In this document: positions 1 through 36,145 of the stretch, in pieces
How the letters are laid out: each line of letters starts with the position of its first letter
Numbering within the stretch: position 1 is the first letter of the stretch
Source of the DNA: Balanoglossus misakiensis
Lineage: Eukaryota; Animalia; Hemichordata
DNA length: 64,000 bases
Direction: 5' to 3'
Assembly (NCBI GenBank): GCA_040954595.2
Contig: CM082592.2
Span: 4,294,735 to 4,358,734, forward strand
Made by a program: the position numbers and the translations under genes
Notes under the pieces: generated by a model
Database searches by the model: none
What the model saw: the letters and a program-made list of their open reading frames with translations, nothing else
Told to the model about the DNA's origin: nothing

Positions 1-219
1 GTTTATTTTAATATTAAATATGCAGTATTATATTTTCATCAATATCTGTGACATCATCAGATACAGTGTACATGGGTTATGTGTAACATGTACATACTTT
101 GGAAAGGACTTGACAGGTTTCACCTTTTCAGCTTTTAATGTTTAAGTCTACACGCAAAAAGAGTTGCCTGAACAACTTGAGTGAACTTCACCAATAGACT
201 TCCAATATTTTGATTGCAG

Positions 220-452
220 CAGAGGAGTTCCTATGAGTGGTACATACCAAAGGGAATTCTCAAGACAGGTTGGATGAATAAGCATTTGAATTTAGTGCCA
301 GCACTGGTGGTCATCTTCTTTGATCTTGACTGGGACGAAGCGCTGTGGAAGGAGAAACAGATGGAGTGTGCATCCAGAGTTGAGGTGGTCAGGTAAGATG
401 TGCTTGATTAAGGTGATTACGTTGATGTTGTTGTTGTTGGTGGTGGTGGTGG

Positions 453-505
<53 letters not shown>

Positions 506-518
506 TTGGTGGTGGTGG

Positions 519-567
<49 letters not shown>

Positions 568-3500: not shown

Positions 3501-6500
3501 TAGTAGCTTTTTCTCAGTTTGCCATTTTGACAGGTTTCTTATTCAGGACAAATCATTTTACATGTATACGAATTAATCTTCACGTCAAAACTTCTTATGC
3601 TGCTATTGTTATATGGGCCGATGGCCTTGGAACCAACCAACCAACCACATATACCAAAAATAATTATTCAGGACAGAAAACAAGTCAGTTATTTACAGGA
3701 AAAGTGATTCAATCCCAAGACACTCCTGTTTGTATGTTTTCACTTAATATGCAAATCATTCAACTGTTCCACACACAATAACTTGAATCAATACCTGAAA
3801 TATTGATTCACTTCACAATTTGATACATCTCGTACATGATTCAGATTTCAGATATTTGGTGATCTCTTTGACGAGGCGATCCGAGTCGGCCTGAATGCCA
3901 TCCAAACACAACATCCTGGATTCTACTACCAACAAGCGGCGAATCACGCCATCAACAGGAAACAGCTGTGTAGAGGATTATGTCATGTAAGATACTCTTA
4001 GATAATAACACAGGGTTCTCCACCTGAAATTTCTGATGCAGTATTGGATAATTCCAACAATAATACACGTACAATTAATTATTTTGATAATTGGTTTACA
4101 TAATTGTTTATTAAAATTGAAAAAAATGGTCAGTACTCTCTTTAATTGATTTTAGGTGAAAACTGACAAAATCATAAATGTTACGTTTTGCATAAAGGAC
4201 TTTGACTATGCAAACTGCTCAAATATAAAGTAATGTTGTATTTGATCTTGTGTCATGAAATGGTCCAAAGTTTATTGGCTAGTGAATGGGTGGAAAATAT
4301 GAAAGCAATAGAATAGTAGGAAATATACTTTGCTGTATTTCTGTACTTGCACATGTAGCAAACAACAAAATTTTAAATAAAATTATTGATTTTACACAGT
4401 AATGTTACTCTTACTGATTTCACATGATGAGATAGGGTTGATGTGATATTGTAATTGATTTGATTTGATAGTGACAATGAAATGATTCTCCCCACAGTCG
4501 GCTACCAGCATGCCCGATCCAAATCCTTTGGAAGATGCAGACAAGTTGGAGTATTTTGGGCAACGACCTTGGCGTCAAGGTCACCAGAGCATCGATCCTC
4601 CTGACCCGGCCAAGGAGAAGGAAGGGATTCAGGCACTGCAGCATCAAGAGGTCAAAGTTGATCACTCGGTGAGTATTAAAGATATAATCATTGATGCGGT
4701 GTGTGGGTTTCCAGTCACTTTCATACACATTGGGTTCCTCCGAACTCACCATATCACCACCATGTGCTTGAACTTGTACATACTGATTGGCTTAATTGAC
4801 CAGTTGCTGGAAAAAAAACACTTCTTGGCTATCACAGCAAGAACAGTTGACTGTTGGTAGGCCATGTTTACCAATAATAATATGTTATGAAACCAGGCAT
4901 CTTATTCCTTTTCATTTCAGTGGATCATTATTCCATTGCTCAGCAGTGCGGTGGCCCAGTTCAAGAAATACAAGTCGGCCAGAATGAAGAGATATCTGAG
5001 TGAGTATGCAGCAATGGATTTGTGTGAATGTAGCATTTGGTTTATTGCTGGCATTGGCCCATTAGGTGTTGAATGATGCTCGGCCCATACAACAGCAATG
5101 AGGAAATATCACAAAAATGCAAACACTGTTGATTTATGAGATAGAAGAGAATTTTTTTTTTACTTTGTTTGCAGTGGTTCAGATGGGAGAGGAATATTAC
5201 CACGCGAAGGACTACAACAAAGGGCTGACGTGAGTTTTTCTGTCTCATTCATTATAGATTCCTATGATTTGTCGACATTGAAATCTTGTGAAAAAAATAT
5301 GCACTTTGAATGTCAGTTTGTTCTATTTTTGGTCAACATTTTATAAAAACTTTCTTTCAAACCTCACATACAGTAGTCAACTGATGTTGTCACGTGCCGA
5401 CAGTGCATTCATTGTGTTCTTATGTCGGGACAGATTTTGTGGGTCTAAATTATTGCGTGAATCTCAGATCGACAATAAAAAAATAAATAAGTGAAAACCC
5501 ATTGATTGGCATTTTTAAAGCAATTACAAATTTTATTCATCATAGGTGTGAAATATTTCAAACCATTCTTCGTCTGACCTCATTTTCATTCTGACTCACA
5601 GGTTATTAGATCGTGTTACCTGGGACTACAGAAACGAAAGATGGTGGGCTCTGCTGACGTCGATACTCACACTGTCACTCAGGTAATCCCATGTCAAAGT
5701 TCAAAGGTCATGAATTCTGTAGTGTCCACTGTCAAGATACTTTGCATCATAACTTGAACTCAACATAGTTTTAATGTGATAATAAGTTACATGTACTAGT
5801 AAACACAACAAGAACAACATGAATGGTAGTACAGCGTTGTTTGTTCGTATGAATTTATTTACGCTATTAAACACAAAATAAAATGTCTTTGTCATTTTCT
5901 AAGCTTTGAAGTCCAAGCCACCACTATACTGGTTTCACTTTGCTGTAAATCTGTATTCACTGTTAGTTTCTGTGATATTAATATTTCAATGTTATCTTGT
6001 TTATTACAGATGTGCTTACCTCGTTGCCAGTATTCAAGAATACGTGACCATCTCTTTGGAGCTCATCGGCAGGTGTATCCTTTGTCAATGCCAGGTGCAT
6101 TTATAATTTACTATGCAGATGGGTTTGGGTATCTGAGTATGTATCAAAGTCTAATGGCATGATTTGTTAATATAGGAGAAAATTCAATACAGCTAAATTA
6201 TTGCTGTAGCCATGCAATAGTTGACTTTAACCAAACACTTAGATGCCAGAATTTCAGCAGAGGACAAAACTCACATACAGATGAACCTGATCAGAGTCAT
6301 GTCTGTAAGTTATTATTTAAAATTATGCTATCTTTTTTACAAAGCATTATGTATTTGGCATCAAGTTGATATTGATTACTGTTTTAAAAAATATTTTGAT
6401 AGTACATTTGTACATGTATACATCAAAATTCTCAATGGTAAATCTTTTTTTCACTTTATCCTTTTAAATTCCCAGCTTTCATCATGTGTCCTTATTGTTA

Positions 6501-9500
6501 AAAATAACTAGCAACAGTTGCTCTATTTCATTGAAATGTCTCTTTATTCAGATGAGCTTTACAAGTCCCCAAAAATTACATTTTAAGAAAAAACAAACAC
6601 AACCAAATCAGCTCTAGTAAATATGAACAAGTGCGCACTTTTTTAAATCCAACCATCTTTATTCCTTTGTTGCCAGAGTAACTCTCCGGAACCTGAGGCT
6701 GGTTGTCCTGCCGACAGTGTTGAGCAAGCCAAACATCATTGGAAGGAGAGAATGGCCAATGAGGACCCAGTGATATTTACTGTACAGATGCAAAACATAG
6801 TTCCATTTGGTAAGTCTGATGTACAGTGTGTTAGTATTGTTGTTGTCCCGTCAGTGCAAGAAAGTTTACCTTCGCCCTGCATAGAAAACAAGGGTGATGT
6901 CAATGTTTACATTGGATTGATTGATTGATTAATTAATTAATAAATTCATTCATTTCAGTGGAATGCAAGGCAAGATTCTCAAGTTCAAAGTCAACGGCAG
7001 ATTCACCAGTGGTGCTGGAGGTCTATCTCAGGTATCTTGCTTCAATTCCAGTGGAATTTTTTATCATTTCATTTAAAGATAACATCATGGTGTGCTGATG
7101 CATAGTGTGCTGATGGATCTTGTTGACTCTCGCTGTCATGTTTTTTCATCGCAGAGCCCTCTGCCAGTTCCCCATACGTTTCTCCAAACTGTCGGCGTTG
7201 CTCAGCAACACCACGTACAACGAATACTGCACGCTGAGTGACGGCAAAGGAAGCAGCAACCTGTCGGCTCCGTTATCGCCGACTGAACATCACGGGGATC
7301 TGTACCTAACGCCCGGGCAAGTCCGGATCTACACTTTCCAGTTCGTCCCGCTGCCGGAAGATGTGGGAAAGAAAATAGAGGCAAGTAGTAAACTAAAAAT
7401 AACTAAAAATTTGCTCAGTTGATTATTCTATACCATGAAAAGTTAAAATGAAGTCAGTTCAAATTTTGATAAGACATGTAAATTTTCATGAGCAATATAA
7501 CCTCATTGAAATTAGCCAATCACTAATCGTTTCTTGAAGTATCTACATTACAGTGCCTATGTACTATATGACAGCTAGCTGTAACACATTACTCATTAAC
7601 AGTGTTATGAGACACCCTTTCTGATTGGCTCTATAGCATTTTTACTGAAACTGTACATAAACCCCAGGATGTTACCCAGAAAGTCTGCTAAATCAACCAC
7701 AGCTTGTTATCAATAATGCACAAAGCAGTTGATGCAGGAAAGACTGTAGTTTATGACGATGTACATGTAAATCAGTGTAAAATAATTGTATGTTGTCACA
7801 GGTGAAATCTGTAGCACTCACCCTTGGTAATGAAGACAGCTGCTGTGCCATCTTGCACTGGTCGGGCGCGGGTGGTGACGCTGCGTCTCTTACCAACATC
7901 CAAGAGCACGTGACGAAACGTAGAGGTCAACCTAAGCATGGAGAATTGGATTGGAATTTCATCAATATGGACCCTTCCATCAGGTGAGGAGTTTGTTTGT
8001 ATGATTATTTTTTTCATCTTCCATTCTAGGAGTTCGATGAATCATGGGCAGAAATGTTAGTTTTTTCAGTAATGTCTCCACCATTTTTATCTGCGCAGAA
8101 TTAATCATGGGAAATGCGGTTTGACCCTATGACCTAATATTAAAGTAATATGAAATAATCTTCACCAAGGATTTTAATCTCCAATGGAAGTCACAGGGTC
8201 AAACATTTTCGTTCCTATGAGTCAAATAAAGTGATTTCAAAGAAGCCTTTCAAAGGCTTTTCAACAGATTTTGAAAGGTCATGCAGTGGATAGTTGCTAA
8301 AAATGACCATCCCCAGCTGACACAGTTGAAATTTCTTGCATGTCACGATCAGTATTCTGCAGTTACTAATAGTGCTTTGGTAAGGTTTGCTATAAAATTG
8401 GCATTGAATTTGGAAATCATTTACTAGATTGCTGGGGAAGAGTATCGGGGAAATCCAGTGAAATTAAAAAGTGACTGGCAATTGCGGATTGTATTAACCA
8501 GCTTTAATACCACCCTTGAAAACACTTCTCCCCTTGTTAAATCATGTTTTTCTATGTGCAATGTCTTCTGCAGTATCATACCCAGACAGAGTAAGATGGA
8601 CATACAACTGTACCACAATCCACCCACCCTGATGAACGAATTCTACTGCATCAATGTGGTTGTCACAAACAATGAAGACTCTGCCATAGACAATGTCAGG
8701 TGAGTTGATCAGGGAGGGAAATTAGACATCCGAAAATTGAGTTTATCAAGCTCACTTGTTTGAAAAATATAGTGTAGCTACCTTGTGTATTGATAAGAAG
8801 CAGTTTCTTAAAAGTCTCAAGATTTTGGTTACTGGTTTATACTATACTATCTGTCAGTATAATAATCTCTCTTATCATTATTCAAATGGAACTATATAAT
8901 ACAAGGAATAAAAGCAGTCTGATTGATAACATCACATTATATACTGATTGAAAAACCACAAAATGATACCATTCCTTTAGTAATTTCCAGAGATATTTAG
9001 GAACACTGGTGTGCCAAGTGTTAACACTGTCTTGGTAATTCGTGAGAGCTGTTCTCATTGAAACTGTGGTTAAATTTATTTTGATTTTTTTCAGTATTTC
9101 ATGTGGACTCAAAGAAGGCCAGGATATGTTAGAATCATCCAGTAAGTAAAAAACTACCTGTACATGTACTTTATTCCTAATACCAGAACTTGTACCATTG
9201 TAACCTGTGCTGTACAGCTTTGAAGCGATATTATTATTAGCCAGTTTTGTGCATATGCTGCCATCCTATCACACCGGCTTAGTTTCAACTCCATGAGCTC
9301 CTCTTAATTTCTCTGTGGAGAATCGATATACAATCCCTGAAAAAAAGAATAGCAGTGAACCCCTCCCCAAACCCTAGTTCTTCTCTGTAGTCATTTCTAT
9401 TTTCCTTGTCTGGCGCTTCAGCTCAAGTCTACCTTGGAGAGGATTCGCTGGGAGTGACTGGGCCACCAAGGATTAGAAATGTCAGTCTTGGAACTTTGGA

Positions 9501-12500
9501 AGCCAAAGGAAAGGTAAATGTGAATGAGCTGTACCAGTGCTTTGTCAGATGTTACCTTAAAAGGAGCAGTGTCACTTTGCCATGGGTTTTGTTAAATGTG
9601 GGATATACATGTACAGTGTACAATCTTAGATACATGAATGATCACCATTGATAATTAGTCATCATCATTAAATTTCAATACATACATATAACAAGACTAA
9701 TTAATAATATTTCTGTTTGGATTTGAAACAGGTGGAGAAGAAATTGTACATAAGAGCCCTGCAGACAGGAAACCGTCTGATGTCAATAAGAACCATCTAC
9801 CAGGTCAAGATCAATGTCAGGCACAACCAGCAAGTTTCACCTGTTCTCTGTACTTGCTTCAAGGTTAGCAGAAAAGGGACTTATTCTTTATGTAATTGAT
9901 TCGTACACTACTTTGACAAGAGATGGATTTCTTACGACAATGGTTTGGTCCAGTTCCATTGTGTTTGAATAGGGAATGGGGGAGAGCACTGGGGGTAGTT
10001 GGGGGTAACCTGTGTCATGTCTTTGAACATTTGTGTCTTGTGCTTTTTGTTCTTTGTTCTACTTCCTAAAGCATGTTGTTTTTTGTGATACTGTCAGCCG
10101 TAGTCGAAAAAGGGACAGCATGTCTCTGATGCATCGAATTACATTTCTGAAAATATTATTCTCAAAATCATTTGTTGCCCCTTTAATCATCAGGAAGTGA
10201 TTGTAACATTTTAAACAAGTATGCATCAAGTTTGAGTTGTTTTTGCACATTTTACTTCAATCATTTGAGTGATCAAATTTAAACCCATCAGAATTTTGTC
10301 TTTTGTATATTGTAAATTGAATTAAATGAAAGTAAATTTAATGATTTTTTTGTATCTTTTTTCGCAGGAAGAAACCATTCAGGTGGAGACTGTAATGCCA
10401 TATGATGTCTCTATCAAACTTGCATCACTGAAGGTACATATTGATCTTGATTTTGTCTTCTGTTTCCTTTCCTGAAATATTTTCCAGTGTGCGCATAGAA
10501 TATGCCTCTCACTCACCTTGTGCACTGGATGCCTTGTGGTAACCAATAAAAATCAGCACTTGTCACTAACTGTTATTTTTTCTTCTCCGCTTTTTGTTTC
10601 GTCATCAGTTTGAGACAATAGAGCATGTGCACTCAGACGAGCCATTCCTGCTGATGACGGACATCAAGTGTACGTCGCCATGGCCAATCACCATAGAAAC
10701 CAGTCATCTGTCCCTGGTCAGTATTCCATGTTTTTGCCAGTCTTGCGTGTGGTCGTCTGGTTGTGAGTGTTTGTGTGTCTGATAGATTGATTTATTACAG
10801 GCATGGATGGATGGGCAGCCAGACTGGTGTGTAGGTTGGTGTTGGACGGATGGTTGGACGGATGGTTGGATGGATGGATGAATGAATGAATGAATGAATG
10901 AATGAATGAATGGATGGATGGATGGATGGATGGATGGATGGATGGATGGATGGATGGATGATAAAAATGAAAAAAAATTAAATATATTTATGAGAATTAA
11001 AAAGAAAGTCTATGTAAATTGTAATATTTAATTGGAAAAAAATATTTATTGACTCAAAGTCAATTGATAGGTGTCATTGTCAAGACAATTTTATTCAGTT
11101 ATTATATACCAGATATAGGACTAATTTACAGAAATTTTAGCAATATGAAAACTGTTTATCATTGAACCACATTAAGCTCCTTTTGAGTTTCTGATGTCAT
11201 TAATAGGTAATGATTTTGCTATATATTCGAGAAAATGATTCTAAAATTGGTCAAGTTCAGACAATGAATGGGCATAACTGTTCATTTCATATCAATGTTG
11301 TTATCAACAGTGCAAAAAATAATACATGAAAATAAAAATACAACACACTAAAAAGATACAATGTAATAATATGAAAATTTACATTAAGCTTTATATGATA
11401 TAACTGAATAATTTCTGATTTGAATACACTGAACAAGTTTGCATTAAAGAAGAATAATTCTCTGAAATACATTCAAACATGGTTTATACAGTTTTATGCT
11501 CTCATGAATGCTATCATGTGATTATTATTTTAATGGACATTTTTTTTTTTAACTTTTAAATTTTCTGGTCAAACTCATTCTTGAATACCTCTAAATATAT
11601 GTCCTGGATATTGTCTGGATTATAAGAGAGTTAGTTAACATTAATCTGGTGTGTATAAAACTATGAAATACTGAATACAAACAATAGCTATACAACTTAA
11701 ACCACTAGCTACCTGAAATACAAATTGAAACCACTATAACTGAAAAACAAATTTCCCATGTAAAAAATCTTCAGTAAAAATGGAAAAAACTGAAATACAA
11801 AATGATGGTATTTAATTTGAAGAGGGAAAATAATGCAAAAGATACAGTTACTGAGGATAACAGTGGTGTTAATTTTTTTTTTACGATAAAATTCATCTTT
11901 CATAAATTTAAATCTATAGTTTTTCATTTAGTGAAAACTAAAGAATAATTGAATACACTACCAATAAATGAAAAGTGTTTTAATATTTACATCGAAGTGG
12001 GTTAGTAGACCAATAACAGAACAGCATCTGGTGTGAATTCATCAAAACAAAAACACAAGTCACTATTGGTTCAGTGTTGGGACACACTCAACCAATGGCA
12101 AACAAGCAACTGAAATTTTTGTTGCAGTAAAGAAAATTCTCATAAATGTTAACAGTGCATAAAAAATACAGTTATATTTCTGTTGCTTAGACTTGCTGAA
12201 ATTTAGATTTTACATTTATGAAAATCTTGGGCGAAATGTCAAAAAAACATGAAGTGTTAAAGATAGATAATGAATACTTTGAATCTGTATCACTAATTCA
12301 TATGCACCATTGGATTGTAAAACATCAAATCTCAAGTTGTGAGTTATTTTAACCACAGTGCAATTTTGAGTCACCTAAACACCAAATAATGTATAACAGG
12401 TTGTGTGAAATTACTCGGTAACTCTGTGAGTACGCCAGTTTTGGGAGTGACTCATGGAAAGGAATTCCAATCCAAAGTTGGTCATGTTTGGGATCATAGT

Positions 12501-15500
12501 CTGATTCACCTTGTGATGTTTTCAGTTTCACTGTACAAACACTTTGATGCAGTGGTTGTCTCTATCAGCTACAACCACCCTGCAAGGTACATCATCTGTC
12601 AGTGCCAAACCAATGGCATAGAACAGACTTTCACCATATGTATTTACACAACAAACAAACTTGCCTCCACTCTCAAACTTCAGTATGCTGCCACCAGCAC
12701 TAACATACACATATTTATCATTTCCAATGCCTATTCCCCTGGGGTTATTCTTCTGACCACCCTCACCCTGACAATCAAAGGAATACAAATACTGGTCGTC
12801 TGAATTGAAGACCTGGATACGCTGGTTTGAGAAGTCTGCAACAAATACCATCCCATCATTTCCCACTTGTATTCCCCAGGGCAAACGGAATTCCCCCTGA
12901 CCTTTACCATGTGACCCAAATGACCTTATGTACCTGCCCTGCTGTGTGTAAATCCTCACACAATACCCACTGAAGACGTACTCTGTCACATAGACATTAC
13001 CATTGACAGGGCTGATAGATATCCCATATGGATTCTTGAGCTCCTTTTGACCAAAGCACCTGATGACATGTCCGTTCTCATCACTAACAACCACTTGCTT
13101 ATTCTTATCATCTAAACTATGGTATTCATTGTTCTTTGAAATGGCTATGTCACATGGAGTGAAAGGCTCCTCAAAGCCTGTAAATGTTAAGACTTTCTTG
13201 AGCCTGCCCTCTATGGTGGTTACTTGTAATCTGTTATTGTCAGTGTCAGCAGTGACAATGTCTTTGTCTTTGTTTATGGCCACGCTGTGGGGTTTATTGT
13301 ACTGTCCCTCATCACTTCCTTGTTTGCCGATGGTTCTCAGCAATCCTTTTTTAAAAGGTATGCTGACAGGAGACCCTGGTATTGCCTGATCTCCTATTGT
13401 CAAGGAAACTTGATATTTACCGTCCATTTGTCCGGTCACTGTCAATCTGTGTGTGCCATCTCCGTTGTCAGATACTTTGATGTCTTCCTGTGAAGCATCA
13501 GGTTTTCTTACCTTGGCTTTCACCGGTTGTTTGGGGATGACTTGTTTTCCTGTGAGGTCTCGGGTTGTGACCAGTAGGTCTACAGAATCACCTTTGATTT
13601 GTTGTTCTGGAACATTTCCAACCGTGCACTTTGAGATACATATGTCAGATTTCAGTAATCCCAGAATTCCCTGCTCACTGAAGTCGCTCTTTGGTTCAAA
13701 TACAACTTCTTCATACTCTGCCTGTGGTTTAGTCGCCATGGTGATAAGTCGACTGATATGAGATTCTGTGTCACTTTTGGTGGAGAGAAGTTGTGCAGCG
13801 TTCCCATGATGCATCAGTGTTTCCACATAACTGCAAGTGCTTTTGATGTTGCCAACTTTTAATTCCAACTCGTCGATGTCTGCAGCTGCTGTTTTTATTT
13901 TTACTTTGTAGTTTCCATTCAACTCATCTACCAATCTCTGCTCTTCTCTCTTGATTTTGTTGATGATTTTCTCTGCGTGCATTCTCACCTTCCTTTCTTC
14001 TTTCTTACAATGCTCTGTAAGATCACTGTGTATCTGCTTGGCTAGGCTTTTGTTCTTTTCAGCTTCCTGTTCTTTCACTTTCAGTTTGTCAACCATGGCT
14101 TTCAAATTCTTACGATACTCATCTGCTGCGTCTTTCAAGTCTCTGTGCACATGTTCTGGTATGCGGTGTTTGACTATTGTACAGTTTGAACAGACAGGCA
14201 CCTGGCAGGTTTCACAGTAGAATTCAATTTTGTTCTCATTATGAACACTGCAGTATTCCACCGCTTGTAGTGTAACAGGACTGGTTGACTGTGCTGTCTT
14301 GAATTCTTCAATGGTCATAAGCTTGTGTGTCCGTGTGGCCGGTAGAATTCCGTGTGCCTTGACACAAACGTTGCAGAGATGTCTGCATTCCACGCACCAG
14401 TGAGTGGATGCATTCTCTCCACATGCTTGGCACTTGATCTCAGCCCCCTTCTCAGCATCCAGTCGTTGCTTGAACAAGTCCGTCAAATTTGACATGAAGA
14501 AATTGGACTTGATTCCGCGAACTCCGCCTTCGGGAAGTGAGTATCGCTGTCTGCATTCCGGACAGGTGACGGATCTCGCCTTCCCAGCCAGAGTGACCAA
14601 ACACGGCTCACAGAATGTGTGCAGACATGGTAGAACTTTCGGAGATTTGAACAGCTCCAGACAGATGGTACAAGAGAGGAATTCCTCACTGACTTTCTGT
14701 ACGAGTTTACCTTCAGTGGCAGCCGCCATTCTGTACGTCTATCCTCACAGAGAGAAAACAGAAAATGTTGGTAGTGTGGCTCCTTAGCTTGCCTTTGTTT
14801 AGACACATGATGTCATGTGCTTGTATGTGTTCTGTAGATCAGTGTGTATGATATGCAAATAGTGTGACAATTCTGACTGATGTAGGGAGTACACATTTGA
14901 CCACTGAGTGCCTGGGTACACGATTGTGGGTGTGTGTTTGATGTCCGCTCACCTGATCTGAGGTCAGAGAAAGGTTATCTCCAAAACAATAGACTAAATA
15001 TAATAAATTGCCTGCATGGGTGTGGGACTATTTGCCCTGTCAACTATTATGTTGATAACAATTTTGTTGCTATCAACTGAAATGTTGATAACAATTGTCA
15101 CATGTAAAAATTATAAATCTGTACCGTAAATTCTATATTTATTTGAAGTGGAGTCTGGTTTTGGTGAAGGCTGGCAAACAGTGGTCTCAATTGTTTCAAA
15201 CAATGAACAAAAATATGATTTGTGCTACCGTGTAGTTCTGCTTACTTGAACAGGATGAATGTGTGTGTAAGGTTCAAAGTGTACATAGAGAGAAAAAAAC
15301 TTTGTTTGACCAATTTAACTAAATTGAAACTAATTTTTTGTGGAATACAGTTTTGTAGGAAGAAAACTTGTACTCTATATAAAATTCCCCACGCCTGGTA
15401 TAATCGGCATTAAAATCGTGTTTCTTCTCAATATAAATTTCTGTACTGAGATTTCTGTCAAATGATCAAAGAATTTTGTTTATTCTAGTGGTTTCTGAGA

Positions 15501-18500
15501 ATATAGTAAAATTGACTTGAATACCCATGTAATACAATTAGTAGTATGGTTTTTTTTTAAAGTATGAATACTTTTAAATTAGCAACATATTTAAATCGAT
15601 ATTTTGAATTTTCCAATATGCATTTTGAGTGCTCTATTAAAAATTAATACCTCCCATTTTTGGACTTAACAGTCGAGAAAAAATAATTTTTAAGTCTTCC
15701 CTCCAGCTAATATGTTATTGTTAGCAAAACACTTGAAGTTTTCTGAGTTTTGACATTTGTTTCTTTGACTTTAAATATAATAATGACTGGTTCTTGATCT
15801 TGAGTGGCTTGGTGCGATTGTGGGTGTGTTTGATATGTCAACTCACCTGATCTGAGGTCAGAGAAAGGTTATCTCCACAACAATAGTATAAAATACCTGC
15901 ATGGGTGAGGAACTGTTTGCTCTGTCATGTTGATAACGATTTGTATACGTGAAAATTTATGAACTAGATTATAATTTCCATACTTAATTGAAATACAGTC
16001 TGGTTTGGTAAGGCAGGCAAACACCTGTAGTCTCAATCGTCCCACAATATCGAAATGAGACCATAGGTTTTATGTGAAGGGGTGCTTGGAGGGTTTCTTC
16101 TGTTGCAGAATATCTGTTCAACCAGTGACTACTCACTGTGTTTTTGTTCAAACCAGAATTAGCCATCTTGGATTTCAAATATAGGAACCATCTCAGCCAA
16201 ATTACTATCAGAAGTGGACAGCGATATTAACCCAAATCTGTCACAGGCTTTGCTGTGCAAATGAGTATGGTCCAGTATTCACCAACCACCATACTGCCTC
16301 AGTAGATTTGGTGCAAAATGGCCGCTGTGTGACATCACTACAAAGAATTCAGGACTGCCACTGAGAAAATAATGCAGATTTGATAGACATTTCTGACGAT
16401 ACGCTAGTTTTATGTCTTTTGATTATCACACAAAAGAAACTTTAATACTATATTCACCGATGAGAATACTCAATACTTTGTTTGGTCAATAACACTCATG
16501 TATGGTGCACATCCAAACTTTTAACATGAGCCTAGTGGCAGTGTTAGGCCAGGGAACCAGACTAAGTACAATTCCCAGTACACCAGTAAATCCCTGTTGG
16601 GATCATGCTAACACAGTGCTGACTCTAGACTTGCATGTTGCTAGTACCACATTGGCTCTGACGTAAACTGTTAAGATGTTAACACTGGGCTAGCCCAGTG
16701 CTAAGAACTCATTCAGTCTGGCTTTAGGCTTTTGGACCTATTGCAGTGTTACTGGTGTTAATGCCTGGCGTGCTACATGTAGGCTGGCTTTAATTTGCTC
16801 TGTAGGCTGTGTTCGTACTGGTCCATTTGGTCTAAGTCATGGCCCTGGCTATCTTCATTGCTGGGTGGATGGATGGATGGATGGATGGACTGATGGATGG
16901 ATGGATGGATAGGGAAAATAGTTGAATATTTGATAAGAAATGAAATTAAGGAAGTCTATGTAAGATTAAATTGGGAAAAAAAAATCAAGTCAACTGAAAC
17001 TCCATTGATGTCAAGGCAATTTTTTCTGTAATTATATGTCAGATATAGGACATATTTAAAGAAATTTTAGCAATTCATAATTTCACAAACAATTGTAAAT
17101 TTAATTTAAAAAATACCACACACTAAAAAGATAATATGAAAAATGTACATTAAGCTTTATATGATAGAACTGAATATTATCTCATTTGAATACACTGAAA
17201 AACTTTGCATTCAAGAAGAAGAATTCTCTTAAATACATTCTGACATAGTTAATATATACAGTTTTAAAAAAATCCTGAAAAAAATATTTTAAAATCAATT
17301 TACAGGCAAGGTTTTAAAATATTTTCTTGACCTCTGTATGACCTCATATTCTGGGATTTTCAGTGGAAGTTTAGCTTGAAAATAAGAACAGATATACCAG
17401 GATTTATTTTAGAAAGGTCATGTGGAGGTCACGATAATGGTAAATTTTGTTCAGGAAAATTAATGTCTGCTCAATATGCTCTCATGAATGCTATCATGTG
17501 ATTATTATTTCAATAGACATTTGTTTTTAATTTTTAAATTTTCTGGTCAAATTCATTCTTGAATACCTCTAAATATATGTCCTGGATATTTTCTGGATTA
17601 TAAGAGAGTTAGTTAACATTAATCTGGTGTGTATAAAACTATGAAATACTGAATACAAACAATAGCTATTCAACTTAAACCACTAGCTACCTGAAATACA
17701 AATTGAAACCACTATAACTGAAATACAAATTTCCCATGTAAAAAAATCTTCAGTAAAAATGAATAATAAATGAAATGCAAAATGATGGTATTTGAAGAGA
17801 GAAAATAATGCAAAAGATACAGTTACTTAGGATTACAGTGGTGTTAATTTTTGTTTACAAAAAAATTTAATCTTCTTTCTTAAATTTGAATCCATTATTT
17901 TTCATTTAGTGAAAACTAATGGATATTGTTAGATGCTACCAATATATGAAAAGTGTTTAATTTTTACGTTGAAGTGGGTTAGTGGACCAATAACAGAACA
18001 ACATCTGGTGTGAATTCATCAAAACAAAAACACAAGTCACTATTGGTTCAGTGTTAGGACACACTCAACCAATGGCAAACAAGCAACTGAAATTTTTGTT
18101 GCAGTTAAAAGGAAACTCCAATAAATGTTAAAAATGCATAAAAAATACAGTTATATTACTGTTGCTAATAGACTTGCTCAAAGTTAGATTTTACATTTAT
18201 GAAAATCTTGGGTGAAATTTATATGTCAAAAAAACATGAAGTGTTAAAGATAGATAATGAATACTTTGAATCTGTATCACTAATTCATATGCACCATTGG
18301 ATTGTAAAACATCACATCTTAAGTTGTGAGTGATTTTAACCACAGTGCAATTTTGAGTTACCTGAACACTAAATAATGTACTAACAGGTTATGTGAAATT
18401 ACTCATTAACTCTACGAGTATGCCAGTTTTGGGAGTGACTCATGGAAAGGAATTCCAATCCAAAGTTGGTCATGTTTGGGATCATAGTCTGATTCATCTT

Positions 18501-21500
18501 GTGATGTTTTCAGTTTCACTGTACAAACACTTTGATGCAGTGGCTGTTAGTATTAGCTACAACCACCCTGCAAGGTACATCATCTGTGAGTGCCAAACCA
18601 TTGGGAGAGGACAGCCATTCACCATATGTATTTACACAACAAACAAACTTGCCTCCACTCTCAAACTTCAGTATGTCATGAAAGGTACTAACATACACAT
18701 ATTTATCATTTCCAATGCCTATTCCCCTGGGCCTATTCTTCTGACCACCCTCACTCTGACAATTAAAGGAATACAAATACTGGTCGTCTGAATTGAAGAC
18801 CTGGATACGCTTGTTGCTGCGGTCTGCAACAAATACCATCCCATCACTTCCCACTTGTATTCCCCAGGGCCAATCGAATTCCCCGTGACCTTTACCATGT
18901 GACCCAAATGACCTGATGTACCTGCCCTGCTGTGTGTAAATCCTCACACAACTCCCACTATAGTCTGTAACATAGACATTACCATTGACAGGGTTAATAG
19001 ATATCCCATATGGATCCTTGAGCTCCTTTTGACCAAAGCACCTGATGACACGTCCGTTCTCATCACTAACAACCACTTGCTTATTCTTATTATCTAAACT
19101 ATGGTATTCATTGTTCTTTGAAATGGCTATGTCACATGGAGTGAAAGGCTTCTCAAAGCCTGTAAATGTTAAGACTTTCTTGAGCCTGCCCTCTACGGTG
19201 GTTACTTGTAATCTGTTATTGTCAGTGTCAGCAGTGACAATGTCTTTGTCTTTGTTTATGGCCACACTGTGGGGTTGATTGTACTGTCCCTCATCACTTC
19301 CTTTACTGCCGATGGTTCTCTTGTTGATGACAGATATGCTGACCGGAGACCCTGGTATTGCCTGATTTCCTATTGTCAAGGAAACTTGATATTTACCGTC
19401 CATTTGTCCGGTCACTGTCACTCTGTGTGTGCCATCTCCGTTGTCAGATACTTTGATGTCTTCCTGTGAAGCATCAGGTTTTCTTACCTTGGCTTTCACC
19501 GGTTGTTTAGGGATGACCTGTTTTCCTGTGAGGTCTCGGGTTGTGACCAGTAGGTCTACAGAATCACCTTTGAAGAGTTGTTTTGGAATATTTCCAACCG
19601 TGCACTTTGAGATACAGATGTCAGATTTCAGTAATCCCAGAACTCCCTGCTCACTGAAGTCGCTCTTTGGTTCAAATACAACTTCTTCATACTCTGCCTG
19701 TGGTTTAGTCGCCATGGTGATAAGTCGAGTGATATGAGATTCTGTGTCGCTTTTGGTGGAGAGAAGTTGTGCAGCGTTCCCATGATGCATCAGTGTTTCC
19801 ACATAACTGCAAGTGCTTTTGATGTTGCCAACTTTTAATTCCAACTCGTCAATGTCTGCAGCTGCTGTTTTTATTTTTACTTTGTAGTTTCCATTCAACT
19901 CATCTACCAATCTCTGCTCTTCCCTCTTGATCATGTCAATGATTGCCTCTGCGTGCATTCTCACCTTCCTTTCTTCTTTCTTACAATGCTCTGTAAGATC
20001 AGTGTGTATCTGCTTGGCCTGGGTTTTGTTCTTTTCAGCTTCCTGTTCTTTCACTTTCAGTTTGTCAACCATGGCTTTCAAATTCTTACGATACTCATCT
20101 GCTGCGTCTTTCAAGTCTCTGTGCACATGTTCTGGTATGCGGTGTTTGACTATTGTACAGTTTGAACAGACAGGCACCCGGCAGGTTTCACAGTAGAATT
20201 CAATTTCGTTTTTGGTGTGAACACTGCAATATTCTACCGCTTGTAGTGTAACAGGACTGGTTGACTGTGCTGTCTTGAATTCTTCAATGGTCATAAGCTT
20301 GTGTGTCCGTGTGGACGGTAGAATTCCGTGTGCTTTGACACAAACGTTGCAGAGATGTCTGCATTCCACGCACCAGTGAGTGGATGCATTCTCTCCACAT
20401 GCCTGGCACTTGATCTCAGCCCCCTTCGCAGCATCCAGTCGTTGCCTGAACAAGTCCGTCAAGTTTGACATGAAGAAATTGGACTTGATTCCGGGAACTC
20501 CGCCTTCGGGAAGTGAGTATCGCTGTCTGCATTCCGGACAGGTGACGGATCTCGCCTTCCCAGCCAGAGTGACCAAACACGGCTCACAGAAAGTGTGCAG
20601 ACATGGTAGAACTTTCGGAGATTTGAACAGCTCCAGACAGATGGTACAAGAGAGGAATTCCTCGCTGACTTTCTGTAGAAGTTTACCTTCAGTGGCAGCC
20701 GCCATTCTGTACGTCTATCCTCACAGAGAGACACAGAAAATGTTGGTAGTGTGGCTCCTTAGCTTGCCCTCGATTAGACGCTTGACGTCATCTGCATATA
20801 TGTGTTCTGTAGATCAGGGTGTATGATATGCAAATAGCGTGACAATTCTGACTGATGTAGGGAGTACACTTTTGACCACTGAGTGCCTGGGTACACGATT
20901 GTGGGTGTGTGTTTGATGTCCACTCATCTGATCTGAGGTCAAAGTAAGGTTATCTCCAAAACAATGGACTAAGTATAATAAATTGCCTGCGTGGATGTGC
21001 AGACTATTTGTTTTGTCAACTATTATGTTGATAACGATTTTGTTACTATCAACTGAAATGTTGATAACAATTTGATACGTGTAAAATGTTTGTATTTATT
21101 TGAAGTGGAGTCTGGTTTGGTGAAGGCTGGCAAACAGTGGTCTCAATTGTTCCAAATGATGCAATAAAATATGATATGACAACCGCTGTTGAACATATTT
21201 TTGTGAGCAGAGCAACATAAAATAAACCATCAGAAAAAACCCTGAAATAAATAAAACATCAGAAGCAGCTTTTTTTCTTTGAAATAAGCCTTTTTTTCTG
21301 TTAATTTTTTTTATTGATACAATACAAGACAGACATAGAAACACAGACGATAACTGACATAAAAACAATATATTACAAATTCAGCAGTTCGTTCAATGAG
21401 CCTCATTTGGTTCGAAACCTGGTTGACTAAGCCTTTGTTCAGTTCTTATCTGTAAAGTATTGATCGGTGTCAAAAAACTTTATTAATGACCTAGATTTAG

Positions 21501-24500
21501 AGATAAATGACACACTCAGCTGTTTAACGATGTCAGAGATTTCTGATAGCACACACAAGCTTCAAATAGGTTTGATATAATGTTGGGCCTCTTTCGTTTT
21601 GTTTAAGAATTTTTTTTTTCAATATGCCCTGCTGACTTATTGGTGTCCTGTGTGATCAAAATATGTGTGTGTCTGTGTATGTACATGTATGTGTGTGTGT
21701 CTGTCTATCTGCCTATGTTTCTGCCTGTGTGTCTGTTTGCTTATTCAATAAACACTACATGTATGTTTTATTTTTTTTTTTTTTTGCAGTGTACATGAAT
21801 CAATACAAAAGTTGTGTTTCTAATTCTCAGAATTCATATTCAGTAGTAATTATCTGAATATATTGCAACAGAAAATTAGTATCATAGGGCATCTAGGAGT
21901 GATTGGATGATTAATATTGGAACAAGCCTAATCGTGACCTGGTTGTTTTATAGTGGTGTTATTAATTTGAAGAATTTGACTAGAATTGACTTGAAAGGAT
22001 GTCCAACATAAAGCTAGACAAAAATTGAAAATGGATTATTGTACAAAATTTGCCTGTCCAGTGTGAAAGTTAAAAAACATAAAAATATCGTATCGTAAAT
22101 TTGCAATTCAAAATTCTGCAAGAATGTTTTCTTTAAAAACAAGCTCAGTCAGATGTCATAGAAAATGAGACACTAACATACATGCTAAAATTTTAATAGC
22201 ATGTTGTTTCCTCAATGTGGACGTCGTATGTAAGTGGTAAGTGAAGCCTCACTGACTAAAGCACAACTTTGTTTTGTCATTTTTTTCTCCCAACTAGTCA
22301 AATGAAGTCAATGCAACAGATGAGGACCTGGAGTCGCAGGTTACTTCAGGTAAACTCAAGTTAGCTTTGAATACTTGCGAAGGATCAACGGTCAAAATGC
22401 TTTGTAAACAAGGAAATGGTAGATTTGCTCATGCAGGCAAGGCAACAAGCCCTGTGCATTGAATCCATCGTTATTACCTTGAAGTTCCTAAATAAGGAAG
22501 TGAAGTCAAATGGAATGTTATAATTAAAGGACAGTTTACACATTCTGACTGGTATCTCCAAGATCTGTTATATTTTGCACAGCATTTGCATAATGCAGCT
22601 GAACACCTGTCGGGAGACTGTGAGCTTGGATACGGGCCATTCTGTTTGAGAAGCCACTATTTAGTTTAACAGTATCCAACTGAACAGAGAGTTGCGTTTC
22701 TTCAAAAAGAAGTCGAGTATATGTACATGAATGTTCTCAATGTTTGTATTACACAGTCTCACTCAAGCAGAACGAAGGAGCCAGCGAGTGCTTCTGTCTG
22801 GTAGCACCGGCCAATCACCAGCAAGCTACCGTTCCCATTGGTCACTACTCCATCAAATGGAAACGGTAGGTCCTGCTATTTGCATACTGTCATGTGACCT
22901 TGTGGTTCAACAGATCGAGATTTGTCTAACGTGTTGACTGTTAAGTCTACCAGTTTTATATAACCCTTTCACCATGGTTCAGTCCAAACCCATTGTTTTC
23001 TATGGTAAGGTTGGATCTCTAACGAGGGAACTGGGGGTGAAATGGTTAAAACGGCACTCCTGTGATTTTAGCTCCTGTTTGCCATATATGGTACATCAAT
23101 TGGAGCTTATCTTACAGGGTGAAAAAAAAGTTTATATATGTAAGTGATTGTTGAAATATTTTTGCTCTTGTTCTGACACAGCCCCTAAAGATGGCTCTGA
23201 AATGTTCTAGGTCTGAAACTGGCATAAAATAAAAATCCAAGTAGATTTTGAAAAGAAAAAAAGTCTCCCAGTGATGTACAGTACTGTACATCATCTTCCG
23301 TGCAGAATGTGAACTTTGATCTTTGACCCCCGATCCATCATGCAGTGTGTTCTCCTTTCCTTTTCCAGGACTTCCTGTGGTGACAGCCTTCCGACTGTAC
23401 AGACCGTGCTGGCATTGCCCAGCGTCATGGTGGAAAACATCCCACTCTTCATAGAGACCAACATGCCGTCCCATGGCATGGTCCGCGACTCCCTGCCGGT
23501 CGAATACGTCATCTACAACCGAACGGCGATCGTCCAGGAAATCGAAGCCGGCATGGAGCCCAGTGAAGCTTTCATGTTTTCTGGACACAAGCAGGTAGCT
23601 CAAACTTCTATGCGTTTCTGACTTTATCTGTCATGAAATATTACACAATGGGAAAAGATTGTGGACCACTATAGTGGGAACAGGGGGTGAAAGGGTTAAA
23701 GGGACAAAGTCTCTCTCTTCTTCCCCTTTTTCCATTAATTATGTTTGATACAGGACACGGTTTATGTGATTCTACATGTGGATATATACTGAAATCAACG
23801 TTCGACCACACACAACTTCCGTCCCGTTAGAAAACGATTATTCATTTTGGGGAGTTTTTCACTCGTGTCTACAAGTGGGATGGCAGTTGTGTAAGGGCAG
23901 TGAGAGAGAGTCTTTGTCCCTTTAAGGTAGTACATGTACGTGCTTAAGGGATAGATTTTCAGAAAAATGGTTGTCCCCCAAAAATGTCAAATTCTGTGCT
24001 ATATTATCAATTTGTGTGAGGAGGATTTTTAAAAACAGTGTTCACCATCTTGTTTTCTCAAAAAATCACTACCCCTATTACTTTAATTTTTCTCCGTAGA
24101 CTTGACATGGAGATTGACACACATTTTGAATTTCAACTTTGAGTCAATTTGGCGCTGTCATTTTAAATTTTTACATGTTGATCCCTATTTTTGAATTAAA
24201 GAGAGAATAATCTCAATTTTCCTTGAGCAAATAGGCGAAAAAGTTTAAGACTGATTTTTGAGGTGTGCATACTACCTTAATGGTACCATCAGTGATTAAT
24301 TCAATCATGACTGTTTCTTCCAATCCTATCAATAACAGAGATTTTCCGGTCTTCCTCTCAAATCAGGTCTGTTTTAGAATGTTGCCAGGCAACAACCAGA
24401 AGCTGACGTACAACCTGTATCCCTTAGTTCCTGGTTATGTGAAGTTGCCGCGGTTACACATCAGTATGCCCCGTTACCCCGGAGTGGCGGATGATCTCGG

Positions 24501-24815
24501 GGGACGGATGCTTCCAACTCATGTCTTTATCAAGGTGAGTCCAGCCTCACTGGGTGATACCATTCTCAGGATGGGGATGTCCAATCACTCAATGTTGACA
24601 TTATTGAATTTCTTCTGAATACCACAATGGAACAATATTTGGTACTTACCAAAAATTAAATAATGGAAGTGTTCATATGTAATGTTCATGTACAGGGTGT
24701 GAGCTGAGTTGTAACTTGCCGTGTTAATGCTTTAAGGCTGAATTTCTTCAATGTGATTTCTCTTCTTTTCCAGCCACAAGGCCGAGAAGGGGTTCAGGAG
24801 ACGGTCAAAGGGTGA
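220..24815 (+). CDS. TRAPPC11: Trafficking protein particle complex subunit 11 (TRAPPIII), multi-exon, 5' end outside the window
   Basis: Exons spliced by hand give one open frame that follows TRAPPC11 as I recall it ([81 protein letters not shown], stop at 24813-24815). Exons: 220(or 223)-392, 762-832, 1300-1414, 1786-1885, 2180-2253, 2600-2696, 3125-3258, 3845-3986, 4498-4668, 4921-4999, 5175-5229, 5602-5682, 6010-6074, 6243-6304, 6677-6809, 6959-7031, 7155-7380, 7802-7983, 8574-8699, 9095-9141, 9422-9513, 9732-9863, 10368-10433, 10609-10716, 22298-22349, 22757-22865, 23369-23594, 24367-24534, 24774-24815. Splice phases are compatible throughout. Confidence 0.96.
421..566. repeat. Compound (GTT/GGT/GAT)n microsatellite, intronic
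   Basis: Directly visible; explains the poly-M, poly-H and poly-I ORFs. Confidence 0.97.
969..1105. mobile_element. TA-flanked MITE (Tc1/mariner-like)
   Basis: Terminal inverted repeats TACTGTAAAACGGGTTAT ... ATAACCCGTTTTACAGTA. Confidence 0.75.
2977..3069. mobile_element. Short MITE with CCCTTTCACC/GGTGAAAGGG ends (piggyBac-like, TTAA-associated)
   Basis: An inverted copy of the same ~90-bp sequence lies at 22960-23049 and a partial copy at about 23645-23699. Confidence 0.7.
6075..6242 (+). other. U12-type (minor spliceosome) GT-AG intron of TRAPPC11
   Basis: Donor GTATCCTTT at 6075, branch-like CTTTAAC at 6225-6231 about 11 nt before the AG, and no polypyrimidine tract. Only this donor keeps the frame (IGR-Y-ARIS). 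Confidence 0.88.
7381..7801 (+). other. GC-AG intron of TRAPPC11
   Basis: Donor GAG|GCAAGT joins KKIE to VKSVALTLG in frame. The nearby GT dinucleotides at 7385 and 7388 would cause frameshifts. Confidence 0.85.
10843..10962. repeat. (GGAT)n/(GAAT)n microsatellite
   Basis: Directly visible. Confidence 0.95.
12528..14729 (-). CDS. TRIM-NHL E3 ubiquitin ligase (TRIM2/3/71-like architecture), copy 1, intronless CDS nested antisense in a TRAPPC11 intron
   Basis: 733-aa ORF with a C3HC4 RING (CTIC...CLHTFCEPC...CPEC), B-box1 (CQAC...CVEC...CNVCVKAH), B-box2 (CSVH...YCETC...CSNC...H), a coiled coil, a filamin Ig-like domain (VSDNGDGT...IPGSP) and six NHL repeats (e.g. [11 protein letters not shown]...[12 protein letters not shown]). 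Confidence 0.93.
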   Translation of the reverse strand: MAAATEGKLVQKVSEEFLSCTICLELFKSPKVLPCLHTFCEPCLVTLAGKARSVTCPECRQRYSLPEGGVRGIKSNFFMSNLTDLFKQRLDAEKGAEIKCQACGENASTHWCVECRHLCNVCVKAHGILPATRTHKLMTIEEFKTAQSTSPVTLQAVEYCSVHNENKIEFYCETCQVPVCSNCTIVKHRIPEHVHRDLKDAADEYRKNLKAMVDKLKVKEQEAEKNKSLAKQIHSDLTEHCKKEERKVRMHAEKIINKIKREEQRLVDELNGNYKVKIKTAAADIDELELKVGNIKSTCSYVETLMHHGNAAQLLSTKSDTESHISRLITMATKPQAEYEEVVFEPKSDFSEQGILGLLKSDICISKCTVGNVPEQQIKGDSVDLLVTTRDLTGKQVIPKQPVKAKVRKPDASQEDIKVSDNGDGTHRLTVTGQMDGKYQVSLTIGDQAIPGSPVSIPFKKGLLRTIGKQGSDEGQYNKPHSVAINKDKDIVTADTDNNRLQVTTIEGRLKKVLTFTGFEEPFTPCDIAISKNNEYHSLDDKNKQVVVSDENGHVIRCFGQKELKNPYGISISPVNGNVYVTEYVFSGYCVRIYTQQGRYIRSFGSHGKGQGEFRLPWGIQVGNDGMVFVADFSNQRIQVFNSDDQYLYSFDCQGEGGQKNNPRGIGIGNDKYVYVSAGGSILKFESGGKFVCCVNTYGESLFYAIGLALTDDVPCRVVVADRDNHCIKVFVQ
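14731..14952 (-). other. Putative 5'UTR intron of TRIM copy 1
   Basis: On the minus strand: donor CAG|GTGAG at 14952, then a pyrimidine-rich tract and TACAG acceptor one nucleotide before the ATG. Confidence 0.55.
15810..16045 (-). repeat. Third copy of the TRIM upstream (UTR-exon-like) segment
   Basis: Aligns with 14915-15200 and 20890-21155 (ctcacctgatctgaggtcagagaaaggttatctcc...). Confidence 0.8.
16866..16910. repeat. (GGAT)n microsatellite
   Basis: Directly visible; lies at the start of the second duplicated unit. Confidence 0.93.
17266..17474. mobile_element. Insertion present only in the 3' flank of TRIM copy 2, MITE-like
   Basis: Absent at the equivalent site of copy 1 (about 11495). 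Imperfect inverted ends TCCTGAAAAAAAT / ATTTTGTTCAGGA, and internal TGACCTC / GAGGTCA. Confidence 0.55.
18516..20705 (-). CDS. TRIM-NHL E3 ubiquitin ligase, copy 2 (tandem paralogue of 12528-14729)
   Basis: Intact 729-aa ORF with the same domain order, about 90% identical to copy 1 by hand alignment. Confidence 0.93.
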   Translation of the reverse strand: MAAATEGKLLQKVSEEFLSCTICLELFKSPKVLPCLHTFCEPCLVTLAGKARSVTCPECRQRYSLPEGGVPGIKSNFFMSNLTDLFRQRLDAAKGAEIKCQACGENASTHWCVECRHLCNVCVKAHGILPSTRTHKLMTIEEFKTAQSTSPVTLQAVEYCSVHTKNEIEFYCETCRVPVCSNCTIVKHRIPEHVHRDLKDAADEYRKNLKAMVDKLKVKEQEAEKNKTQAKQIHTDLTEHCKKEERKVRMHAEAIIDMIKREEQRLVDELNGNYKVKIKTAAADIDELELKVGNIKSTCSYVETLMHHGNAAQLLSTKSDTESHITRLITMATKPQAEYEEVVFEPKSDFSEQGVLGLLKSDICISKCTVGNIPKQLFKGDSVDLLVTTRDLTGKQVIPKQPVKAKVRKPDASQEDIKVSDNGDGTHRVTVTGQMDGKYQVSLTIGNQAIPGSPVSISVINKRTIGSKGSDEGQYNQPHSVAINKDKDIVTADTDNNRLQVTTVEGRLKKVLTFTGFEKPFTPCDIAISKNNEYHSLDNKNKQVVVSDENGRVIRCFGQKELKDPYGISINPVNGNVYVTDYSGSCVRIYTQQGRYIRSFGSHGKGHGEFDWPWGIQVGSDGMVFVADRSNKRIQVFNSDDQYLYSFNCQSEGGQKNRPRGIGIGNDKYVYVSTFHDILKFESGGKFVCCVNTYGEWLSSPNGLALTDDVPCRVVVANTNSHCIKVFVQ
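22960..23049. mobile_element. Second copy of the short piggyBac-like MITE
   Basis: Reverse complement aligns with 2977-3069; ends TAACCCTTTCACC ... GGTGAAATGGTTAA. Confidence 0.7.
23700..23921. mobile_element. TTAA-flanked MITE (Kolobok-like)
   Basis: TTAA|AGGGACAAAGTCTCTCTC ... GAGAGAGTCTTTGTCCCT|TTAA. Confidence 0.72.
23926..24276. mobile_element. TTAA-flanked MITE (Kolobok-like)
   Basis: TTAA|GGTAGTA ... TACTACC|TTAA; shares its left TTAA with the preceding element. Confidence 0.65.
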
Positions 24816-35817: not shown

Positions 35818-35818
<1 letters not shown>

Positions 35819-35848
<30 letters not shown>

Positions 35849-36145
35849 TGTATGTATGTATGTATGTATGTATGTATGTATGTATGTATGTATGTATGTA
35901 TGTATGTATGTATGTATGTATGTATGTATGTGTATGTATGTATGTATGTATTTATGTATGTATGTATGTATGTATGTATGTATGTGTGTGTGTGTGTGTA
36001 TGTATGTGTGTATGTATGTATGTATGTATGTATGTATGTATGTATGTATGTATGTATGTATGTATGTATGTATGTATGTATGTATGTATGTATGTATGTA
36101 TGTATGTATGTATGTATGTATGTATGTATGTATGTATGTATGTAT
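35819..36145. repeat. (ATGT)n microsatellite
   Basis: Directly visible; explains the YIHT and MYVC ORFs. Confidence 0.97.

Follow-up and report, generated by a model that had tools for sequence, protein, structure and literature searches.

A 64,000-nucleotide stretch of the acorn worm Balanoglossus misakiensis genome on contig CM082592.2 (hereafter the window, numbered from its first letter) carries two closely similar genes, A and B, that encode proteins with a RING finger, a pair of B-boxes, a coiled coil, a filamin domain and an NHL propeller. We read them as tandem paralogues within a large acorn-worm TRIM-NHL family in which the predicted top face of the propeller changes faster than the rest of the gene and is likely under diversifying selection, and which likely serves as a set of inherited intracellular sensors of foreign targets; taken as a whole, this is a reading in which we place somewhat more belief than doubt. 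Between the two genes there is an excess of amino-acid change on one face of the propeller, while its framework and the N-terminal part of the protein are under purifying selection.

Gene A (12528..14729, minus strand) encodes 733 residues in a single exon and gene B (18516..20705, minus strand) 729 residues with the same architecture; both reading frames are open and intronless, and the two proteins are 92% identical. Pfam matches above cut-off were obtained in both for RING, B-box, filamin and NHL domains. The RING finger of gene A (residues 20-59; 14553..14672, minus strand) is of the Pfam C3HC4 type with 8 of 8 zinc ligands present, and that of gene B (20529-20648) is the same in amino-acid sequence. 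Pfam places B-box 2 at residues 158-195, while B-box 1 (residues 100-135) was recognised by eye from its Cys/His spacing and has no Pfam score; the coiled coil would correspond to a long helix at residues 198-308 of the predicted structure. The NHL propeller takes up residues 462-733 of gene A (12528..13346, minus strand), where six blades are predicted and an N-terminal strand closes the ring, and residues 460-729 of gene B (18516..19328, minus strand), as placed by Pfam and alignment to gene A. No membrane segment was found in A or B, the top 19-residue hydropathy values being 1.37 and 1.12. By each structural criterion tested, A and B are TRIM-NHL proteins (class VII, subfamily C), and their intact RING suggests that both may act as E3 ubiquitin ligases.

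The initial annotation had counted by hand about 23 differences between the copies in the first ~457 residues and about 33 substitutions plus a 2-residue indel in the NHL region. Alignment gives exactly 23 in residues 1-457 and exactly 33 plus a 2-residue indel in residues 468-733, and the density of amino-acid differences is significantly unequal between the N-terminal part (23/457) and NHL residues 471-733 (31/261; Fisher P = 0.001). All seven variable patches that had been listed were found in the A/B alignment. In gene A coordinates, all on the minus strand, they comprise the blade 3 b-c loop (residues 583-589; 12963..12983), which holds the 2-residue indel and shows more length variants among contigs from the sequenced sample; a patch ahead of strand a of blade 4 (R615D and L616W; 12882..12887); the blade 4 b-c loop (F633R and Q636K; 12822..12833); a site ahead of strand a of blade 5 (N662R; 12744..12746); the blade 5 b-c loop (residues 678-681; 12687..12698); a patch before and at strand a of blade 6 (residues 701-706; 12612..12629); and the blade 6 b-c loop (residues 722-725; 12555..12566). 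Within the blade 4 b-c loop, Ser634 (12828-12830) is the same in both copies, but its codon is TCA in A and AGC in B, a difference that requires amino-acid-changing steps or a multi-base event, and other amino acids are seen at residues 633-634 in sample contigs. The proposed clustering in blades 3-6 was also borne out, with 20 of the 22 differences on a narrowly defined top face falling there. The 3' non-coding flank, described earlier as better conserved than the patches, is so relative to the patches themselves, but not clearly relative to the whole NHL region (58/1022 aligned bases, 5.7%, versus 51/783, 6.5%). An additional patch with 5 substitutions and a second 2-residue indel lies at the filamin-NHL junction (residues 458-464; 13337-13357, minus strand), where both A and B deviate from the usual family sequence.

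We modelled the gene A protein with AlphaFold2 from an alignment of 79 family sequences, designated A1, which omits six of the 83 named acorn-worm matches, P0039, P0045, P0057, P0102, P0105 and P0114 (NHL coverage 52-88%). The model has a mean predicted local distance difference test score of 86.9, mostly >90 in the propeller, and shows 24 strands in six predicted blades. Foldseek returned TRIM2, TRIM3, Thin and Brat as the best NHL matches (TM-scores 0.83-0.91 by target length), and the TRIM2 NHL structure 7qrv superimposed on the modelled propeller with a TM-score of 0.91 by target length and a root-mean-square deviation of 2.0-2.4 A. The fold and the identity of its faces are predictions. 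The top, RNA-binding face of NHL propellers is formed by the b-c and d-a loops, according to passages of PMC4015489, and we assigned residues to top loops, bottom loops or strands from the secondary structure of the model rather than from its coordinates. Amino-acid changes between A and B affect 22 of 83 codons in top loops, 4/54 in bottom loops (P = 0.007 for top versus bottom) and 7/126 in strands, those in strands lying mostly at ends adjoining top loops. The top-loop changes are also more radical, with negative BLOSUM62 scores for 10/22 substitutions versus 0/4 in bottom loops. The variable residues map to the d-a and b-c top face of the six-bladed model, as the initial annotation had anticipated.

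We compared these changes with the neutral expectation from synonymous sites and flanking DNA. The synonymous rate (dS) is even along the gene (0.071 in the N-terminal part and 0.056 in the NHL region) and similar to the divergence of the two flanks (5.7% and 8.1%). The N-terminal part is under purifying selection, with a ratio of nonsynonymous to synonymous rates (dN/dS) of 0.34, in agreement with the earlier description of a constant RING/B-box effector. Top loops have a dN of 0.185 against a dS of 0.068 outside them, a ratio of about 2.7 (Fisher P = 1e-4), whereas dN/dS is 0.46 in bottom loops and 0.42 in strands. Counting each codon once, 22 top-loop changes were observed versus 12.3 expected from flank divergence (P = 0.004). 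Silent differences within 3 codons of an NHL amino-acid change (4/106 codons) are not above the gene average (16/417 in the N-terminal part), which makes it less likely, small as these numbers are, that the patches are leftovers of old conversion.

Sites chosen independently of the pair gave the same picture. We took the 20 sites that vary most among 36 paralogues from other species, leaving out the pair, and A and B differ at 14 of them; when these sites were grouped, 9/13 groups had changed versus 2.8 expected (P = 2e-4, and P = 0.004 at a 1.5-fold neutral rate). Passages of PMC5908797 name 14 RNA-contacting residues for zebrafish LIN41, and by hand mapping on TRIM71 chains 13 of these fall on four positions per blade: P-1 and P+1 around the proline that starts strand a, and D+1 and D+2 after the aspartate that ends strand b. 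In the acorn-worm family, these register positions are the most variable (2.4-2.9 bits, versus 0.3 for the proline and 0.6 for the aspartate), and all 79 register signatures are distinct. A and B differ at 12 of 23 register sites versus 3.4 expected, compared with 21/240 in the rest of the domain; in groups, 9/12 had changed versus 3.2 expected, and doubling the neutral rate still gave P = 0.047. Compared with bottom loops, the register is enriched in Arg, Tyr, Asn, Cys, Trp and His, a bias that may resemble that of antibody binding loops.

Neither the two genes nor their pattern of change is exceptional among acorn worms. The first 44 NHL matches were all from acorn worms, the best being from Ptychodera flava at 64-69% identity, and the best 120 of 364 matches included at least 83 named acorn-worm TRIMs (44 from P. 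flava, 18 from Glandiceps talaboti and 21 from Saccoglossus kowalevskii), whose database names vary between TRIM2-, 71-, 45- and 56-like. We built a quick tree from 86 NHL regions, all of acorn worms and with no outgroup. It joins A and B as sisters (support 100), nested among paralogues from P. flava and G. talaboti, and its sequences group by species, with 9 label changes versus 38 after shuffling. These at least 83 paralogues and their clustering by species amount to a lineage-specific expansion of the kind known for finTRIM and TRIM5. Ten P. flava entries (P0003-P0007, P0010, P0011, P0016, P0020 and P0022), all on one 29-Mb contig, are only ~430-525 residues long and have no RING or B-box matches; these short models represent truncated forms or faulty gene models. 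Outside the hemichordates, the N-terminal part has its nearest relatives, among the matches listed, in TRIMs of amphioxus (~30% identity). Amphioxus entries P0148 and P0173-P0207 share this part and carry MATH, NHL or another domain at the C-terminus, a sequence pattern that suggests that the recognition domain may have been exchanged on a common scaffold.

We replicated the comparison at the protein level in 25 disjoint nearest pairs, each <25% divergent, from Ptychodera, Glandiceps and Saccoglossus. Ten clusters were opened for close relatives; three member pairs proved to be identical re-annotations and were dropped, and the incomplete P0039 was kept outside the pooled count. Top loops out-diverged bottom loops in 25 of 25 pairs, and the pooled divergence was 28% for top loops (567/2004) versus 11% for bottom loops (143/1327), 12% for strands and 11% for the N-terminal part. 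While A and B differ mainly in blades 3-6, the family varies in all six. Thus, of the receptor pair initially described, the variable face stands, but the pair itself is not special, being two members of a large family. DNA contigs of one sequenced sample, from the three runs listed, revealed further diversity: run X1 alone gave 234 records on an 861-base NHL stretch, 126 of them <95% alike. Of 16 indels, the 12 listed are all located in b-c loops, those of blades 3 and 5. Of 133 substitutions, 40 are listed, and when each was read singly against gene A, 18 changed an amino acid of a top loop, 7 one of a strand and 2 one of a bottom loop.

Both genes lie antisense within an intron of TRAPPC11. 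Using the P. flava and G. talaboti TRAPPC11 proteins as tblastn queries, we located the host gene at 217..24534 on the plus strand; the best match was the P. flava protein, whose residues 73-1126 are found in order, each exon once. Taken with the NHL matches, this points to an acorn worm that is likely close to Ptychodera. The intron (10717..22297, plus strand) is an 11.6-kb GT-AG intron at about codons 941/942, while the other gaps between TRAPPC11 matches are <800 bases. Among the TRIM matches listed, none lies on the TRAPPC11-bearing contigs of P. flava or G. talaboti, a weak hint that the TRIM insertion into this intron is particular to the B. misakiensis lineage. An inverted pair of ~80 bases in different TRAPPC11 introns (2983-3064 and 22964-23042; 89-92% complementary) is probably a small dispersed repeat. 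Elsewhere in the window, simple repeats at 35770-36280 and 387-580 (TATG/CATA type and GAT/GGT triplets) produce spurious open reading frames, and an AT-rich satellite of ~88-base units (58048-64000; at least 64 copies) reaches the window end.

Within the intron, each gene sits in one copy of a direct repeat (A, 11495..15222; B, 17475..21178; 92.7% identical) that comprises the gene together with flanks of ~1 kb on the 3' side and ~0.5 kb on the 5' side. An outer part of ~600 bases (10911..11496) is 74-83% identical to 16862-17266, and in both copies the unit begins at a TGGA microsatellite (10843-10960 and 16862-16910). The otherwise unique spacer contains a third copy of the upstream element (15801..16044, minus strand), degraded and without the rest of the unit, which is 71-78% identical to the A and B upstream regions. 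This upstream element (14905..15064, minus strand, with further minus-strand copies at 15801-15942 and 20880-21045) has a CAG/GTGAG splice-donor-like site and is a candidate non-coding first exon, and a pyrimidine-rich, acceptor-like AG stands 14 bases ahead of the ATG in both A and B. The donor-like site upstream of gene B has AT where that of A has GT, so splicing of the 5' untranslated region may differ between the two genes. The repeat structure is better explained by duplication that truly took place, and more than once, than by a false haplotype join; this duplication may be older than 7% divergence suggests and partly homogenised. A contig joint between 11488 and 17321, found in runs X1 and X2 and skipping gene A, was considered as a haplotype without A and rejected, since its short side is only 28 bases long; it could come from a one-copy haplotype or from the flank of another paralogue.

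Several results weigh against diversifying selection or an immune role. The selection estimates are pairwise, from the two DNA sequences A and B, and the family tests use protein only. Whole-NHL dN/dS is 1.28, not significantly >1 (bootstrap P = 0.21), and blades 3-6 together, at 1.32, are not above 1 either; the expectation of dN/dS >1 at variable sites held for top loops and independently chosen sites but not for the whole domain, and it is weaker at the level of events. The per-codon top-loop test drops to P = 0.04 with a 25% higher neutral rate, and when neighbouring differences were merged into events at four merging distances, top loops changed at 1.3-1.8 times the flank rate (P 0.03-0.14). 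The multi-nucleotide patches noted at the outset are present in the loops, but they are not peculiar to them, as 23 of 51 clusters of flank substitutions also hold at least 2 changes. The register set was fixed after family variability had been seen, though from other species and LIN41. Moreover, the immune role that we propose for the pair would come from analogy with TRIM biology; TRIM-NHL proteins are known mostly as developmental regulators, and paralogous NHL faces diverge, according to passages of PMC5908797 and PMC9634614. Just upstream of A and B, scans for interferon-stimulated response elements and kappa-B sites gave no match beyond background, and scans for AP-1 and TATA gave nothing useful.

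The modest event-level excess and the clustered flank changes are what would be expected if no positive selection had acted, with unconstrained top loops and patches produced by mutations that fall in clusters or by short tracts converted from other copies. The lower identity of the outer unit (74-83%, versus 93% for the inner) would also fit a duplication of greater age with later conversion, and each of the 5 silent differences counted in the NHL region is no more than 5 codons away from an amino-acid change (5/154 versus 0/67, not significant). We nevertheless regard the absence of positive selection as quite improbable. The site sets were chosen without the pair, so they answer the objection raised by merging events, and their grouped tests are significant (9/13 and 9/12), the register surviving a doubled neutral rate. 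Variability in each blade is limited to four positions, interspersed with near-invariant ones, and bottom loops, as exposed as top loops, stay conserved. A Sawyer-like silent-site test for gene conversion found no long tract (longest silent-identical run P = 0.56; sum of squares P = 0.34), and donors with like framework but unlike loops would themselves require selection. Selection could instead be real but unrelated to pathogens, with these proteins acting as regulators or ligases whose specificity tracks endogenous targets that themselves change fast, such as mRNAs, transposon products, and germline or allorecognition proteins. Brat and LIN41 bind host RNA via the same face (passages of PMC4015489 and PMC5908797), Arg is the commonest residue in the variable register (11.6%), and none of our tests separates pathogens from other sources of conflict. 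However, TRIM-NHL genes with endogenous targets are conserved one-to-one, as described in part of PMC2533329, the NHL domains of human TRIM71 and zebrafish LIN41 being 88% identical (passages of PMC9634614), whereas the acorn-worm family turns over by species and 79 of 79 signatures differ. We consider endogenous targets unlikely, though less so than the absence of selection.

It is also conceivable, if very improbable, that A and B are two haplotypes of one gene falsely assembled in tandem, a possibility that the initial annotation had raised against itself. Sample contigs are up to ~5% off the window in non-duplicated parts (21/410 bases at 16048-16439), so the 6-7% between the copies is not far above a possible allelic distance, and among the contigs listed, none spans both genes. 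This explanation is disfavoured by the host exons, which are single and in order on either side, by the DNA beyond unit A (15223-16856) and unit B (21179-22297), which gives no allele-like alignment, and by the divergent outer unit and the degraded third upstream element in the spacer. The many additional variant contigs in run X1 also count against it. Were A and B nonetheless alleles, balancing selection, rather than an artefact, would account for how their faces diverge.

If A and B are sensors of foreign targets, they might, by analogy with finTRIM, TRIM5, TRIM32 and TRIM56, work as follows. The coiled coil would dimerise the protein; the two propellers would bind the target via P-1, P+1, D+1 and D+2 of each blade; and the conserved RING would recruit a ubiquitin-conjugating E2 enzyme and so mark the bound target, either to be destroyed or to signal. 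Duplicated genes would gain new specificities through point changes at these ~24 positions, through indels in the loops and, probably, through conversion from one copy to another. The weakest step of this scheme concerns the ligand, which would more likely be a protein of a pathogen than an RNA, given that no conserved basic pocket is present on the face. LIN41 and TRIM71 bind RNA through a strongly basic pocket (passages of PMC5908797 and PMC9634614), and at our hand-mapped positions the pocket that zebrafish LIN41 forms with Arg564, Arg581, Arg611, Lys628, Arg676, Arg707, Arg752 and Arg770 is not conserved. The top-face net charge is +2 in both A and B and ranges from -5 to +5 across 79 family members, and each copy has 4 Lys or Arg among its 23 register sites, against an average of 3.8 in the family (range 0-9). 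These values weakly contradict the suggestion of an RNA ligand of the Brat/LIN41 kind. The pair is a handy test case because 92% identical proteins differ on one face, and loop swaps and pull-downs could name the ligand class directly. A bolder proposal, which we advance tentatively as somewhat less probable than not, is that the family forms a germline-encoded repertoire of recognition ligases, with ~24 NHL positions, the four in each blade with which LIN41 contacts RNA, acting as a hypervariable paratope on an intact RING and with single-exon genes that enter housekeeping introns and amplify there, so that NHL would be the invertebrate counterpart, and possibly the forerunner, of SPRY in the antiviral TRIM arrays of vertebrates.

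In the literature covered, which included few subscription papers, we found no invertebrate TRIM-NHL expansion with a selected face, hemichordates included, although tables of genome papers may list the family. The available part of PMC2533329 describes NHL-type TRIMs as few and conserved one-to-one, with only a small worm/fly expansion, and assigns fast species-specific expansion to vertebrate SPRY TRIMs. NHL-face divergence between ancient paralogues has been published (passages of PMC5908797), and amphioxus-specific subfamily C genes have been reported in PMC3503706, whose available passages do not mention selection on a binding face. TRIM55- and TRIM56-named genes occur in a sea-star sweep window (PMC12330192), reported without domain analysis, and an oyster immune-gene paper (PMC4346834) has no TRIM or NHL passage.

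Among known proteins, A and B resemble TRIM71/LIN-41, TRIM2, TRIM3, Brat, Mei-P26 and Thin in domain string and fold, and their variable positions coincide with the LIN41 RNA register (passages of PMC3503706, PMC2533329, PMC9634614 and PMC5908797); the nearest solved NHL structure is that of TRIM2 (E 3e-55), and the two B-boxes are as in TRIM71. Classic TRIM-NHLs, however, form a small, conserved set (mammals have four to five), and orthologues share the same face, as far as the same passages describe them, whereas the acorn-worm family has dozens of paralogues per species, a varied face, no LIN41 basic pocket and a one-exon coding sequence. TRIM32 and TRIM56 are likewise NHL-type ligases that restrict viruses: TRIM32 directs an influenza polymerase subunit to degradation, and the anti-flavivirus action of TRIM56 requires the RING and the C-terminal part (passages of PMC11284085). 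Both differ from the acorn-worm genes in being single genes without hypervariable expansion. Amphioxus subfamily C TRIMs are ~30% identical in the N-terminal part, and one is a short intronless reading frame, but in many of them MATH or another C-terminal domain replaces filamin-NHL, according to passages of PMC3503706.

The closest parallel in mode of evolution is with finTRIM and TRIM5alpha, described in passages of PMC2657112 as clustered multigene TRIMs with near-identical RING and B-box, diversifying ligand-facing loops at the C-terminus and species-specific expansion. Selection in ligand-facing loops of this type appears in our pairwise and site-set tests and more weakly at the event level. 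The variable domain of finTRIM and TRIM5alpha is B30.2/PRY-SPRY, whereas by Pfam the acorn-worm genes have NHL repeats, predicted to form six blades, after filamin and no SPRY; and finTRIMs were found as virus-induced transcripts, whereas the acorn-worm genes, from a non-vertebrate deuterostome, are known here from DNA alone. By this analogy, A and B may work like finTRIM and TRIM5, with NHL in place of SPRY. If so, a strategy known from TRIM5 and finTRIM would extend, in this hemichordate family, to a different fold and to the chordates' sister group.

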